Below, in pieces: positions 1 through 5,197 of a DNA stretch of 5,197 nt; position 1 is the first letter of the stretch; each line of letters opens with the position of its first letter. The position numbers were made by a program, and so were the translations under genes. The notes beneath the pieces were generated by a model that ran no database searches, was not told where the DNA came from, and saw only the letters and a list, made by a program, of their open reading frames with translations. Source of the DNA: a virus (Duplodnaviria > Heunggongvirae > Uroviricota > Caudoviricetes); IMG/VR virus record IMGVR_UViG_2671180433_000002. The stretch is one strand, 5' to 3'.

Positions 1-78
1 ATATTCGCCCTGACTTTCCAGAACCATACGGACTGCCCGTTGACGGACTTCAGGGGAAAAACGAGTATTTTTAGTCAT
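1..78 (-). CDS. IS629-like transposase OrfA, 5' portion only (26 codons; continues past window edge)
   Basis: Minus-strand ATG at 76-78, preceded by AGGA-containing AAACAGGATG context. Translation MTKNTRFSPEVRQRAVRMVLESQGEY is a typical IS3-family OrfA HTH N-terminus. Confidence 0.75.
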   Translation of the reverse strand, partial: MTKNTRFSPEVRQRAVRMVLESQGEY

Positions 79-132
79 CCTGTTTACCTCTTTCTCAGGA
101 AGTTTAGTCTCCAGGATTCCCGGGGCGGTTCA
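1..132 (-). mobile_element. IS629-like (IS3 family) insertion sequence, terminal fragment; left inverted repeat abuts 132 and the element continues beyond the window start
   Basis: Bases 1-132 are the exact reverse complement of 5066-5197. The terminal sequence TGAACCGCCCCGGGAATCC reads on the minus strand and ends at 132. The minus-strand ATG at 76-78 opens an ORF translating MTKNTRFSPEVRQRAVRMVLESQGEY, which I recognise as the N-terminus of IS629-type OrfA. Confidence 0.8.
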
Positions 133-1758: not shown

Positions 1759-2117
1759 ATGAATATGAGTTTGTGCTTCCCTGGCCGCCGACGGTGAATA
1801 CCTACTGGCGAAGACGGGGAAGCCAGTACTACATCAGCGATAAAGGCCAGAAATACCGAAAAGACGTACAGCAAATCATCCGGCAACTCAGATTAGACAT
1901 TTTCACTAAATCACGACTTCGCATCACAATTATTGCTGAACCACCAGATTCCCGCCGTCGCGACCTCGATAACATCCTGAAAGGTTTACTCGACTCTCTT
2001 ATCCACGCCGGATTTGCGGAAGACGACGAGCAATTCGATGACATTCGCGTAATTCGCGGCGTGAAAGTGCCTGGCGGTAGAGTGGGGATAAAAATCACCG
2101 AACTGGAGAACATTTGA
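1755..2117 (+). CDS. rusA: Crossover junction endodeoxyribonuclease RusA (Holliday junction resolvase)
   Basis: 120 aa; EFVLPWPPTVNTYWRRRG...RRRDLDNILKGLLDSLIHAGF..DDEQ..DIRVIRGVKVPGGRVGIKITE parallels E. coli RusA motifs (LPWPPS.N.YYR, RRRDLDN). ATG overlaps the ybcO stop (ATGA). Confidence 0.9.
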   Translation: MNEYEFVLPWPPTVNTYWRRRGSQYYISDKGQKYRKDVQQIIRQLRLDIFTKSRLRITIIAEPPDSRRRDLDNILKGLLDSLIHAGFAEDDEQFDDIRVIRGVKVPGGRVGIKITELENI

Positions 2118-2311
2118 TGAATGCTAAAATTCAAACGATACCTGAATTACTGATCTGCACCAGGGGAAATCAGACAGAAGTCGCCAGAATACTGAACTGC
2201 AATCGTGCTACAGTCAGAAAATACATTGATGATAAAGATGCGAAAAAGCACGCCGTCGTCAATGGCGTCCTTATGGTTCATCGCGGATGGGGTAAAGATA
2301 CTGATGCGTGA
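2117..2311 (+). CDS. ninH: NinH-like small DNA-binding protein
   Basis: [58 protein letters not shown] closely parallels lambda NinH as I recall it (..[50 protein letters not shown]). ATG 2117 overlaps the rusA stop (TGATG) with GGAG at 2105-2108; the ORF track's 2114 start is an in-frame TTG. Confidence 0.8.
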
Positions 2312-2738
2312 TATCCGGCAGGTTCTTGAGCGCTGGGGGGCATGGGCGGTAAATAACTATGAGGATGTTACATGGTCGCCCATTGCTGCCGGATTTAAGG
2401 GACTGATCCCCGAAAAAGTAAAATCACGTCCACAGTGCTGTGACGATGATGCGATGGTGATATGCGGGTGCATAGCCCGCCTTTACCGGAACAATCGCGA
2501 TCTGCATGACTTGCTGGTTGATTACTACGTGTTGGGGGAGACGTTCATGGCGCTGGCACGGAAACATGGGTGCTCTGACACCTGTATAGGTAAACGCCTT
2601 CACAAAGCGGAGGGGATTGTTGAAGGCATGCTGATGATGCTGGGAGTGAGGCTTGAGATGGATCGGTATGTTGAGCGTGAATTGCCGGGAGGGAGAAGCT
2701 CTGTATTTTATCAGCGAAAAAATAGTTTACGATCGTAA
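2304..2738 (+). CDS. Q: Late-gene antiterminator Q, Q82/QuuD-type
   Basis: From ATG 2304: [34 protein letters not shown]...[20 protein letters not shown]...[11 protein letters not shown] matches the N-terminus and Cys-rich zinc motif of QuuD-family Q proteins as I recall them. The start overlaps the ninH stop. The upstream in-frame extension from 2205 overlaps ninH and is not supported. Confidence 0.85.
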
Positions 2739-2753
2739 AAATCTGCATATCAT
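2726..2753 (+). promoter_or_regulatory. Candidate late promoter pR' (-35 TTTACG 2726-2731, -10 TATCAT 2748-2753, 16 bp spacer), overlapping the 3' end of Q
   Basis: Hexamers read directly from the sequence, in the position expected for pR' immediately after Q in lambdoid phages. The match to consensus is modest and the spacer short. Confidence 0.3.
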
Positions 2754-2784
2754 GATAAGAGTGGTTACATTGCCACGCAGCCGA

Positions 2785-2808
2785 ACCCGCCGATGCGCGG
2801 GTTTTTTT
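2785..2808 (+). terminator. Rho-independent terminator, candidate tR' (target of Q antitermination)
   Basis: Stem ACCCGC (2785-2790) pairs with GCGGGT (2797-2802) around loop CGATGC, followed by a seven-T run (2802-2808), about 50 bp after the candidate pR'. Confidence 0.7.
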
Positions 2809-2988
2809 GTACCCAGAATCCTGTGAGCTATACGGAAAGTACACAGAAAGGAAGGTACGACCGCAATTAATAACAAAATCTTAAAAATCTCATATGGCAC
2901 TATTAGTTTTCTAAATATTGTATATTTTAAGTATTGCAGGATAACCCTGTAACGAAGTTTGCGTAACAGCATTTTGCTCTACGAGTTT

Positions 2989-3018
2989 GCCAGCCTCCCC
3001 TGGTGGCTGGCTTTTTTT
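2989..3018 (+). terminator. Rho-independent terminator
   Basis: Stem GCCAGCC (2989-2995) pairs with GGCTGGC (3005-3011) around a 9 nt loop, followed by seven Ts (3012-3018). Confidence 0.65.
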
Positions 3019-3252
3019 GTATCCGTTCAACGGGAATGTTACATACCTCACAATTAAGTCAGTTGAATGTTGTCTGCCCGGATGAGAATTTGTTAGAAAA
3101 AACTGCATGGTGAATCCCCCTGAGCGGAGGGGCGACTGGTGACGGTATAATCTCTGATTATCAAAACGAGAATGACGCGGGTTTAGTGGCACCGGGCTGA
3201 ACTCACCGGGAGGCACCCGGCACCATGCAATGGCACATAGCGCCACTCTCCA

Positions 3253-3278
3253 GCCCCTCTCCGGAGGGGCTTTCTTAT
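3253..3278 (+). terminator. Terminator-like hairpin with interrupted T tract
   Basis: Stem GCCCCTC (3253-3259) pairs with GAGGGGC (3264-3270) around tetraloop TCCG, followed by TTTCTTAT (3271-3278). Confidence 0.5.
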
Positions 3279-3282
3279 GGAC

Positions 3283-3310
3283 AAAAAAGCCCGCGCTGGG
3301 AGACGCGGGC
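3283..3310 (-). terminator. Minus-strand rho-independent terminator, convergent with the 3253-3278 hairpin
   Basis: Stem GCCCGCG (3289-3295) pairs with CGCGGGC (3304-3310) around an 8 nt loop. It is preceded on the + strand by AAAAAA (3283-3288), which is a U-run after the hairpin for a minus-strand transcript. There is no T-run after it on the + strand. Confidence 0.5.
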
Positions 3311-3503
3311 GGCAAGGAATGAACAATGAAACGTGAAGTAATATTTCAGCTGGCGAATAATACCCCATAGTAATCACTCTGCGCAACTGCGCGACCTTTT
3401 TCGAATTGCGGGCTGTAGTCTCCCTTCTGCCATTGTCCTGTAACTTCCGGACTTCAGCCCGCTCCTTATTTTACTCACAATATTATCCCGGCCGGGAGGA
3501 TTC

Positions 3504-5065
3504 ATGGCATTTAAACACTATGATGTTGTCAGGGCGGCGTCGCCGTCAGACCTTGCGAAACGAATAACTCAAAAACTGAAGGAAGGGTGGCAGCCTTATG
3601 GTAGTGCGCTGATTTCGACAGCTGGTTATGGTGCGGAGTTCATCCAGCCAGTTGTGAGTGAGGGGAGCATCTCATCACCAGAGGAGCCAGGCAACCGTCC
3701 GACGACCTCAGCGCCTTCTGTTGCGCCAGAATATTACTATGTGATCGCGCTTGCTGGTCAGTCCAATGGTATGTCATACGGTGAGGGACTGCCATTACCG
3801 GATACATTCGACAGCCCTGATCCACGTATTAAACAGTTAGCGCGTCGCAGTACGGTGACACCGGGCGGTGCAGCATGCAAATATAACGACATCATTCCGG
3901 CGGACCATTGTCTGCATGATGTGCAGGACATGAGCCGTCTTAACCATCCGAAAGCGGACCTGTCAAAGGGGCAGTACGGAACCGTGGGGCAGGGGCTGCA
4001 TATCGCCAAAAAACTGCTGCCGTTTATACCGGCGAATGCGGGCATTCTGCTGGTTCCGTGCTGTCGTGGTGGTTCAGCGTTCACCACCGGAGCTGATGGC
4101 ACATACAGTGACGCGAGTGGCGCCTCGGAGAATTCAACCCGCTGGGGTGTGGACAAGCCGCTGTATAAGGACCTTATCGGTCGAACAAAAGCGGCACTGG
4201 AGAAGAACCCGAAAAATGTGCTGTTTGCCGTGGTGTGGATGCAGGGGGAATTTGATTTTGGCGGTACGCCGGCAAATCATGCCGCACAGTTTGGTGCGCT
4301 GGTTGATAAATTCCGTGCAGACCTGGCGGATATGGCAGGCCAGTGCGTCGGTGGCTCTGCTGGCGGTGTTCCCTGGATATGCGGGGACACGACGTATTTC
4401 TGGAAGCAGAAGAACGAATCCACGTACCAGACGGTGTACGGCAGCTATAAAAATAAAACGGAAAAGAATATCCATTTCGTACCGTTCATGACCGATGAGA
4501 ACGGGGTGAATGTGCCGACGAACAAACCGGAAGAAGACCCGGACATTCCGGGTATCGGTTATTACGGTTCGAAATGGCGTGACAGCTCAGCCACCTGGAC
4601 GTCACAGGACAGGGCGAGCCATTTCAGTTCATGGGCTCGCCGTGGGATTATTTCCGACCGTCTGGCAACGGCGATTCTGAGCTGCGCGGGTAAGTCTTCT
4701 GCGTTTGTTAATGGTACTGCCGGGGTGGTTGTTCCAGACAGACCGGTTACCACCTCAGAGTCTGTAATTTTTTACGATGCCAAAAAAGCTACAGACAATC
4801 AGCTGAAACCCTATGGCTGGGACGGTGTGTATGGCAGGCGCACACTGGTTGATGACAGCGGCAATAAAGCTCTGCGAATTGAGAAAAATAACAGCGCGAA
4901 ATCCTGGTCAATGTACTGTGATATTGCTGCAGACAAGGCAAAACTTTTACTGGAAAAAGGCGGGGAAATTGCTGTCCGGTTTAAAATCCCCGAAAACGTC
5001 AATCTTGAGACAACCAGAAACAAGTATGCCTTTGGTTTGTACTGGCGAATAGCGGAATGGCCGGG
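3504..5065 (+). pseudogene. nanS-p: NanS-p-like prophage sialate (9-O-acetyl-Neu5Ac) O-acetylesterase, 3'-truncated by IS629 insertion (ORF runs to 5114 using IS-derived codons)
   Basis: N-terminal DUF1737-like segment (MAFKHYDVVRAASPSDLAKRITQKLKEGWQPYG), then an SGNH/SASA esterase block with the catalytic-serine motif (YYVIALAGQSNGMSYGEG). GGGAGGA Shine-Dalgarno at 3494-3500. The IS629 terminal repeat begins at 5066, so the last 16 codons ([15 protein letters not shown], stop at 5112-5114) are read from IS sequence. I recall full-length NanS-p proteins as roughly 600-650 aa, so about 100+ C-terminal residues are missing. Confidence 0.75.
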
Positions 5066-5197
5066 TGAACCGCCCCGGGAATCCTGGAGACTAAACTTCC
5101 TGAGAAAGAGGTAAACAGGATGACTAAAAATACTCGTTTTTCCCCTGAAGTCCGTCAACGGGCAGTCCGTATGGTTCTGGAAAGTCAGGGCGAATAT
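5066..5197 (+). mobile_element. IS629-like (IS3 family) insertion sequence, terminal fragment; left inverted repeat starts at 5066 and the element continues beyond the window end
   Basis: TGAACCGCCCCGGGAATCCTGGAGACTAAACTTCC starts at 5066. Bases 5066-5197 are the exact reverse complement of 1-132. The OrfA start ATG lies at 5120. Confidence 0.8.
5120..5197 (+). CDS. IS629-like transposase OrfA, 5' portion only (26 codons; continues past window edge)
   Basis: ATG at 5120 preceded by GAGG/AGGA; translation MTKNTRFSPEVRQRAVRMVLESQGEY. Confidence 0.75.
   Translation, partial: MTKNTRFSPEVRQRAVRMVLESQGEY

Follow-up and report, generated by a model that had tools for sequence, protein, structure and literature searches.

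The 765-bp block at positions 2739-3503 of the window (the whole analysed stretch of 5,197 nucleotides, virus record IMGVR_UViG_2671180433_000002) is very probably the late-operon control region of a lambdoid prophage of the 933W/H-19B type, with its cargo slot unoccupied. The block is neither anonymous nor decayed: each of its hairpins is assignable to a described element. The region is, in fact, already known and well studied as the late-gene control region of Shiga-toxin-type prophages, which separates Q from the esterase gene nanS-p. Since the hairpins are known terminators and small regulatory RNAs, and the slot for toxin and tRNA genes is empty, the original prediction of a hairpin-dense, cargo-less block is correct but ordinary, and there is nothing here to surprise specialists. 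Its value is one of annotation: a seemingly anonymous hairpin-rich spacer turns out to comprise a late-gene switch and three regulatory RNA loci that have experimental support, none of which is annotated in the RefSeq record of an identical O104:H4 locus. What was computed on the sequence is the homology, where each element lies, its assignment to covariance-model families, how stable the hairpins are and the lack of cargo or coding signal; that the locus is transcribed, that RNase E processes the leader, that Hfq binds the RNAs, that rpoS is activated and that Q allows read-through would be expected from what occurs at homologous loci.

Q (2304-2738, + strand) encodes a 144-aa antiterminator (Pfam PF06530, Phage_antitermQ, 170 bits) that carries the label 'antiterminator Q family protein' in RefSeq at the O104:H4 locus. 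The 144-aa class of Q co-occurs with the small RNA StxS (PMC7547250). The late promoter pR' (TTTACG, 16 nt, TATCAT; 2726-2753, +), located by a promoter scan, overlaps the end of Q, where it had been overlooked in the original prediction. It matches the pR' feature of phage 933W base for base on coordinate transfer, and its flanks are invariant in five phages. Counting back 258 nt from the end of tR' (the length is from PMC7547250), transcription would start at ~2760, which places the start of the leader ~22 nt past the Q stop codon. The initial transcribed region contains a putative qut (Q-utilisation)/pause element at 2767-2774 (+), transferred from the 933W annotation (the feature is putative in that source record too) and invariant in the phage alignment.

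Two intrinsic terminators follow. The promoter-proximal hairpin (2783-2811, +; ~+23 to +50 of the pR' transcript) has an 8-bp stem; its folded part, 2783-2804, precedes a run of seven U and has an energy of -12.6 kcal/mol (z -2.3 vs shuffles). It corresponds to the first feature labelled 'possible rho-independent terminator' in 933W, and its stem and U-run are invariant in five phages. A canonical terminator at +23 to +50 is hard to square with a full-length RNA reported to be 258 nt long; the publication on StxS (PMC7547250) does not discuss a terminator at this position. The late terminator tR' (2989-3019, +; hairpin 2989-3011 plus U7) is the more stable of the two at -16.8 kcal/mol (z -4.6; none of 200 shuffles as stable) and is annotated as a terminator in 933W and in further Stx phage records. 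The 3' end of StxS, as determined by Term-seq, is tR' (PMC7547250).

The segment between pR' and tR' (2760-3019, +) is a homologue of the long form of StxS. Its length and ends are consistent with the published RNA (PMC7547250), the pR'-to-tR' spacing being about 259 nt as against about 258 nt for StxS, and it is identical at 249/258 positions (96.5%) to both Sakai Sp5 and 933W and at 243/258 to an Stx1 phage. The AT-rich segment that the original prediction had singled out falls within it. The composition was described correctly (GC goes down to 0.30-0.37 across 2800-2999), as was the SD-like AAGGAAGG at 2848-2855, which has no start codon behind it. The proposal that this segment is decayed or deleted cargo fails, however, because it is instead the conserved body of the leader; AAGGAAGG itself is invariant in five phages. 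The predicted RNase E site (2931-2935, +), read from the sequence as GUAUU with the cut after GU at ~+172/+173 of the leader, is likewise invariant (GTATT) in five phages; cleavage of StxS has been reported at +173, with GUAUU as the RNase E motif (PMC7547250).

The 3' part of the leader, 2933-3019 (+), is the homologue of processed StxS (fold -30.3 kcal/mol, z -3.2) and matches StxS2 of Sakai Sp5 at 83 of 86 positions. Two of the changes are in the terminator loop and the third is in the U-run (an indel, one extra U), so that the StxS body with the rpoS-pairing seed is identical. Rfam scores for Qrr, RprA, DsrA and VqmR on this region are far under gathering and are driven by the terminator hairpin; the sub-threshold matches to RprA and DsrA are at most a curiosity, since StxS uses the same rpoS site. 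Expression, Hfq binding and rpoS activation are known for the Sakai copies of StxS only, and it has already been noted that some non-toxigenic phages encode it (PMC7547250). The stx-negative prophage of the window is 100% identical over 2100-3700 to a prophage in the O104:H4 outbreak lineage; its nearly unchanged StxS could contribute to activating RpoS without any involvement of the toxin phage.

The small-RNA genes suggested for the interval are thus present, one as the StxS homologue and another as an Rfam match to STnc100 (RF02076; 3077-3282, +). The latter scores 165.1 bits (gathering score 47; E 2.4e-38) and covers model positions 1-206 of 206. In an alignment of ten copies, 7 of its 41 predicted pairs show compensatory change, and the core (a long-range helix and two inner hairpins) is invariant. 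Its terminator occupies 3252-3278 (hairpin 3252-3271, +; -17.3 kcal/mol, z -3.2). Northern sizes of the STnc100-type RNA in Sakai (235/247 nt) are above the length of the Rfam model. Tree et al. 2014 described small RNAs encoded in convergent pairs at the site where morons lie downstream of pR'.

The convergent partner is on the minus strand, where an intrinsic terminator (3283-3310; hairpin 3310-3289 plus U6, -16.9 kcal/mol, z -3.4) stands back to back with that of STnc100. A short RNA of ~68 nt (3283-3350, -), its 5' end set by a candidate promoter, would occupy the AsxR position and be the equivalent of EcOnc08 of Sakai Sp4. That promoter, TTGCGC-18-TATTAT, is placed as is AsxR's TTGCGC-18-TAAAAT, and its -10 element is invariant in related phages. 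The EcOnc08 Hfq peak transfers onto 3285-3357, on the assumption that Sp4 has the same coordinates in the old and the new Sakai numbering. The region equivalent to the peaks EcOnc21 (Sp4) and EcOnc42 (Sp15) lies at 3363-3448 (-), two independent routes of coordinate transfer giving 3363-3448 and 3364-3446. It probably belongs to a longer minus-strand transcript (~190-270 nt) that also ends at 3283, for which weak promoter candidates would provide starts at ~3475 or ~3513. An Hfq-bound minus-strand RNA of ~271 nt by northern is listed by Tree et al. 2014 (Table S2); that size in Sakai exceeds the promoter-based estimates. Equivalence to EcOnc08/21/42 is, throughout, one of sequence homology and coordinate transfer.

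Membership of the AsxR and AgvB families (RF02703 and RF02702; Tree et al. 2014) was considered and rejected: there is no Rfam match within 3270-3510 at E up to 10, and AsxR of Sakai Sp5, as positive control, scores 88.1 bits. OmrA-B and anti-hemB scores on the minus-strand terminator are far under gathering and hairpin-driven. The 5' part of the minus-strand RNA and Spot 42 have 11 nt in common, matching exactly in the sense orientation. By blastn, the window aligns with Sakai Sp5 over 3048-3229 (79%) and 3379-3800 (98.8%), with no match between, so that 3230-3378 constitutes an allelic cassette; Sp5 has another STnc100 terminator plus AsxR at this position. That the minus-strand RNA (from 3350 or further, to 3283) is a functionally distinct, swappable regulatory cassette we regard as an unlikely proposition. 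Were it true, the RNA could act in antisense on the leader and start of nanS-p, or in trans with a new specificity, and lambdoid prophages would swap small-RNA cassettes at a fixed site, 3230-3378, beside the cargo slot.

The hairpins beyond the minus-strand terminator belong to the nanS-p 5' leader. A small hairpin with a U-run (3380-3400, +; hairpin 3380-3393) is the sixth terminator-like site in the terminator scan and is also seen on folding; it marks the start of the block 98.8% identical to Sp5, and its complement bears the -35 element of the minus-strand promoter. The long imperfect hairpin (3408-3462, +; -22.6 kcal/mol, z -4.7) is matched in stability by none of 200 shuffles, is near-invariant in four phages and underlies the region equivalent to EcOnc21/42. 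The nanS-p gene (3504-5066, +; Pfam DUF1737 plus SASA) is preceded by the ribosome-binding site GGAGG at 3495-3499. It is truncated by an IS end at 5066, where the inverted repeat I1 begins. The window as a whole is flanked by IS ends, neither of its two IS junctions being found among 5426 complete E. coli genomes. Given these IS ends and the truncated nanS-p, this may be a defective prophage in which Q is never produced.

How well do other readings of the interval fare? All five hairpins claimed in the original prediction (four terminator-like and a long imperfect one) are where it had located them. Short GC-rich palindromes with a T-run behind them do arise randomly, and the hairpin at 2783-2804 is equalled by 5 of 200 shuffles, so one might take the set for functionless features of an AT/GC-patchy spacer, products of chance or composition. 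The probability of this is, in our estimate, negligible. A terminator scan of 2500-3700 finds 6 sites against 0.9 +/- 0.9 in dinucleotide-preserving shuffles, which puts hairpin density above chance. Every hairpin is kept in related phages, and each falls at an RNA 3' end that is annotated or has been mapped by experiment: the first two are the two terminators annotated in 933W, the third is the STnc100 terminator and the fourth that of the convergent Hfq-bound RNA known from O157 Sakai, identities of which the original prediction was unaware. In our judgement, shuffle statistics and conservation refute the chance reading. It is also very improbable that the interval encodes small proteins. 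The candidates are minus-strand ORFs at 2727-2972 (81 aa) and 2911-3315 (134 aa), both of which match PHROG families of unknown function (phrog_17306, 1.3e-50; phrog_28474, 6.6e-50) and have equivalents annotated as hypothetical proteins in an Stx1 phage and in phi296. The PHROG matches are attributable, however, to old all-ORF annotation of near-identical DNA. ORFs of 30-134 aa on both strands lack Pfam matches, as the claimed absence of a convincing ORF would have it, and RefSeq/PGAP places no CDS between Q and the esterase at the identical O104:H4 locus. The variable sites of the 81-aa ORF in five phages fall 3/9/4 on codon positions 1/2/3, without a third-position excess; this test and the Pfam search accordingly disclose no conserved protein-coding ORF in 2739-3503. 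The 134-aa ORF crosses the cargo junction and is therefore broken in all cargo-bearing relatives, and both ORFs overlap RNAs that have experimental support.

A more substantial question is whether the empty slot is primary or the result of loss. In blastn comparisons with cargo-bearing phages the unoccupied moron (cargo) slot is confined to 3020-3034: homology on the left side stops by ~3026 and resumes on the right at 3035, with identical break points against a tRNA-bearing phage, which has three tRNAs in 469 bp of additional sequence, and against an Stx1 phage, which has stx1AB in an additional 1490 bp. The reported absence of tRNA and stx is upheld; ARAGORN finds 0 tRNA or tmRNA genes and Rfam no tRNA match, relatives carry their cargo exactly here, and the tR'-to-STnc100 interval holds neither ileZ-argN-argO nor stxAB. 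That an ancestral tRNA and/or stxAB cargo was cleanly excised, leaving a scar at 3020-3034, is a proposition to which we give a minority share of our belief. Most relatives are occupied (of 683 E. coli genomes with the same tR' no more than 90 have the empty junction, and of 301 phage records none has it), the preprint on the Pas sRNAs suggests that chromosomes may have lost stx repeatedly, and the junction contains a small palindrome, CCGTT-C-AACGG. Against excision, no cargo remnants were found between tR' and STnc100 with four relatives as queries (blastn at word size 7 and tblastn; all E above 0.04). The cargo sequences of these relatives and the Stx proteins match the window at chance level only, which also disposes of the suggestion of cargo decay. 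The junction ATCCGTTCAAC[G/A]GGAATGTTACAT recurs in lineages that are 94-98% identical and also downstream of a different antiterminator type. At a third locus a different moron (DUF7661) is inserted left of the same linker, so that in the window the flanks of two insertions with different positions adjoin without interruption; this is the pattern expected of unoccupied backbone. On the preferred reading of a control region with an unfilled slot, the site would serve as a reference for the placement of stx and tRNA morons in the backbone.

The control region would then work as follows. In a lysogen lacking Q, the constitutive promoter pR' would initiate at ~2760, and RNA polymerase would encounter the promoter-proximal terminator hairpin (2783-2811) and next tR' (2989-3019). 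Termination at tR' would yield the leader of ~258 nt, which RNase E is predicted to cleave at 2932/2933 to the Hfq-dependent small RNA StxS, and StxS would activate translation of rpoS. Q, when present, would render polymerase terminator-resistant. Such a modified polymerase should pass the two terminators of the leader, that of STnc100 and the hairpin at 3380, and thus reach nanS-p and the lysis genes. On the 3' side of the empty slot there would be a convergent pair of small-RNA genes, STnc100 (EcOnc27-like, +) and an Hfq-bound RNA of the EcOnc08/21/42 type (-), with terminators that meet at 3282/3283.

Each part of this arrangement has its counterpart. StxS (EcOnc15; Sy, Lan and Tree, PNAS 2020; PMC7547250) is the pR'-tR' leader small RNA of Stx1 and Stx2a phages. 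The window shares with these loci a location directly 3' of a 144-aa Q, the promoter pR', the ~258 nt to tR' and GUAUU at ~+173; it differs in having neither stx nor tRNA genes after tR', and the published cis target of StxS, stx1B, is absent from its prophage. In lambdoid phages morons insert at a site downstream of pR' (Juhala et al. 2000, as cited by Tree et al. 2014). Relatives have stx1AB there, or stx2AB together with three tRNAs, or three tRNAs without stx, or a DUF7661 gene; the site is unoccupied in the window, a minority state in genomes and one absent from the phage records searched. The STnc100 copy is a homologue of EcOnc27 (Sakai Sp5) and sRNA103 (EDL933), with PasD of EPEC as a relative. 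Like EcOnc27 and sRNA103 it lies just 3' of the cargo slot and 5' of the sialate esterase gene, and has its own terminator; it begins ~57 nt after tR', as compared with 75 nt after stx2B in Stx2 phages. Its central variable region and 3' terminator differ from those of the Sp5 copy, the terminator being of the Sp4/Sp15/phi296 type. The minus-strand RNA is homologous to EcOnc08/21/42: the window is 93.5% identical to Sakai Sp4 over 3197-3595 and ~90% identical to the Stx1 phage over 3035-3556. With AsxR and AgvB the minus-strand RNA has in common its slot, orientation, convergence with STnc100, abutting terminators (3310-3283 and 3282) and promoter context, the -35 element TTGCGC lying inside the conserved 3380 hairpin; unlike them, it lacks the conserved 42-nt 3' region, and the candidate is longer, at ~68 nt or as part of the ~190-270-nt transcript.

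The density of hairpins that the original prediction saw between the Q antiterminator gene and the nanS-p esterase gene (2739-3503) is real and above chance. A terminator scan of 2500-3700 returns 6 sites, against 0.9 +/- 0.9 in shuffled sequence, and the five hairpins singled out earlier come to -12.6 to -22.6 kcal/mol, with z-scores of -2.3 to -4.7. GC content over 2800-2999 falls to 0.30-0.37, and the Shine-Dalgarno-like AAGGAAGG at 2848-2855 has no start codon behind it. The absence of tRNAs also holds: ARAGORN finds 0 in the window and Rfam gives no tRNA match.

Across 2100-3700 the sequence matches, at 100% identity, a prophage found in E. coli O104:H4 (2011C-3493, C227-11 and others), FORC_069 and ML35, with the gene order ninB-ninE-rusA-ninH-Q, gap, SASA esterase (nanS-p), holin, lysozyme; the gap between Q and the esterase carries no RefSeq annotation. 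Q (2304-2738) encodes a 144-aa antiterminator (PF06530), and the nanS-p ORF, starting at 3504, has DUF1737 and SASA domains. Upstream of its nin region the O104:H4 prophage (locus L004) has Rfam matches to sok, isrK and C4 antisense RNA (1729-1903, 3780-3857 and 3883-3967). A perfect 132-nt inverted repeat at window 1-132 and 5066-5197, corresponding to IS3-family ends (IS629/IS1203-like), brackets a 4933-bp prophage fragment and truncates nanS-p (at 5066) and, near 133, an antirepressor-like gene. Both IS junctions are absent from 5426 complete E. coli genomes, the interior being nonetheless identical to the O104:H4 prophage; the window may be an entire short contig with terminal IS repeats, or an IS-bracketed fragment.

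A promoter scan places TTTACG-16-TATCAT at 2726-2753. Four 933W GenBank features, transferred with the Q stop codon as anchor, put pR' at the same 2726-2753, qut at 2767-2774 and two possible terminators at 2786-2808 and 2989-3017. In Sakai Sp5 and Sp15, the pR' start lies 258 nt from the mapped tR' 3' end, and RNase E cleavage at GU|AUU (+173) yields products named long and short StxS (Sy et al., PMC7547250). StxS activates rpoS in an Hfq-dependent manner, and some non-toxigenic phages also encode it (PMC7547250). With a start at ~2760 in the window, GTATT (2931-2935) spans +172 to +176, and the U-run of tR' spans +253 to +260. Identity to Sp5 and 933W is 249/258 over the leader and 83/86 over the processed StxS part, which differs only in the terminator loop and U-run. 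Because of this identity, the AT-rich segment with its orphan Shine-Dalgarno sequence, previously offered as a sign of decayed cargo, is by homology the conserved body of the leader. The hairpin at 2783-2811 is a canonical intrinsic terminator (8-bp GC stem, U7) at +23 to +50 of the pR' transcript, invariant in five phages; the StxS paper, which reports a full-length RNA of 258 nt, does not discuss it (PMC7547250). Among the best Rfam matches below threshold over 2905-3021 are RprA (27.9 bits) and DsrA (16.6 bits), the pair of core sRNAs that share StxS's rpoS activation site; both score far under the gathering scores, and the matches are probably terminator-driven.

Immediately beyond tR', relatives carry cargo at a point that is empty here. 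Phage phi296 aligns with the window at 2165-3020 and 3035-4676 and has 469 extra bases (three tRNAs) between; a Stx1 phage aligns at 2167-3020 and 3035-3556, with 1490 extra bases (stx1AB). Base by base, the left homology runs to ~3026 (..TTTTTTGTATCCGT) and the right resumes at 3035 (AATGTTA..), leaving the 8 nt TCAACGGG between. The interval is thus cargo-empty, as had been said; no stx or tRNA remnant was found, searches of the whole window with cargo sequences and Stx proteins giving only chance-level matches, which speaks against decay in place. The empty slot is the minority state: with a 171-nt probe (window 2940-3110), the tR' half is present in 683 of the 5426 genomes and the contiguous junction in at most 90, and among phage records the counts are 301 and 0. 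Genomes that are 94-98% identical share this junction, in one case after a ydfT-type antiterminator, and in E. coli FHI_NMBU_10 the linker has another moron (DUF7661, minus strand) on its left. Since the window contains, uninterrupted, the sequences flanking two insertions at different positions, we infer an unoccupied backbone in preference to a deletion scar, and consider a clean deletion unlikely.

In E. coli UTME-2 the empty tR'-STnc100 junction follows a different antiterminator, of 250 aa and ydfT type, and the 3' part of StxS is more diverged (L009 486-1238 and 1501-1674), a case that breaks the reported Q-StxS linkage.

To the right of the unoccupied slot, STnc100 (RF02076) matches over its full model at 3077-3282 on the plus strand (165.1 bits; gathering score 47), with the third hairpin (3252-3278) as its terminator. 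Copies occupy the equivalent place in phi296, the Stx1 phage, two Stx2a phages, Sakai Sp4 and empty-slot genomes; a comparison of ten copies shows no change in the long-range helix or the inner hairpins, and changes on both sides in seven pairs. In the literature the locus corresponds to EcOnc27 of Sakai, which binds Hfq and gives northern bands of 235 and 247 nt, and to sRNA103 of EDL933; it is also related to PasD, which in EPEC lies upstream of the gene for the sialate esterase. FHI_NMBU_10 has two tandem copies with different terminators (L011 1964-2169 and 2231-2444), following the minus-strand DUF7661 gene in the cargo slot.

Downstream of pR', the moron site is described as carrying convergent sRNA pairs; in Sp5, AsxR lies antisense to stx2AB (Tree et al. 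2014). In Sp5, STnc100 is followed directly by AsxR on the other strand (Rfam, 88 bits); at the equivalent spot of the window lies a strong terminator on the minus strand (3310-3283), but neither AsxR nor AgvB is matched even at E values up to 10. Because the window cannot be aligned with Sp5 over 3230-3378 and is 98.8% identical to it from 3379 on, the former stretch behaves, as judged by alignment, as an allelic cassette. The non-homologous segment (L006 3272-3409 in Sp5), between conserved flanks, swaps the STnc100 terminator together with the minus-strand sRNA, AsxR in Sp5 and EcOnc08-type in the window, which suggests modular exchange of sRNA alleles. The window allele belongs with those of Sp4, Sp15 and phi296 and is 93.5% identical to Sp4. 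Tree et al. (Table S2) treat the Hfq peaks EcOnc08 and EcOnc21 (both Sp4) and EcOnc42 (Sp15) as homologous and give a northern band of ~271 nt. Transferred directly via Sp4 and, independently of that route, via the spacing to tR' in Sp15, the peaks would fall on the minus strand at 3285-3357 and 3363-3448/3364-3446; the agreement of the two routes supports the transfer. A candidate promoter, TTGCGC-18-TATTAT, where AsxR has TTGCGC-18-TAAAAT, predicts a 68-nt RNA from 3350 to 3283; weaker candidates predict RNAs of 193 or 231 nt overlapping the nanS-p leader. The 3380 hairpin and the long one at 3408-3462 lie in that leader, which would be transcribed on both strands. The candidate RNA also contains (3331-3341) an exact 11-nt sense match, UUACUUCACGU, to Spot 42 nt 40-50, reached in only 6/2000 shuffles in a post hoc comparison with a handful of sRNAs; it is a weak lead only.

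The view that the interval holds no convincing ORF can be kept. Its ORFs have no Pfam match. Two on the minus strand do have matches among PHROG families of unknown function, but several features speak against their being genes. Both overlap StxS and tR'; the larger spans the cargo junction and is therefore broken in all cargo-bearing relatives; and the other, of 81 aa, has variable sites of 3/9/4 at codon positions 1/2/3. They are regarded as legacy calls.

Of the explanations advanced originally, decayed cargo is not supported, and small-RNA genes are the correct one: a StxS leader, STnc100 and a candidate convergent RNA. Their homology, positions and structure are directly evident at the locus; how they would be transcribed and processed, bind Hfq and act on targets follows the cited work on homologous loci. 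Most probably, pR' transcripts would stop at the leader terminators without Q, giving StxS, and STnc100 and the minus-strand RNA would each start from their own promoter, their terminators lying back to back. Once Q is made, polymerase would resist termination, pass every hairpin of the plus strand and continue into nanS-p and the lysis genes. All of these parts have already been described, and the locus is a known system in its minority, unoccupied configuration.
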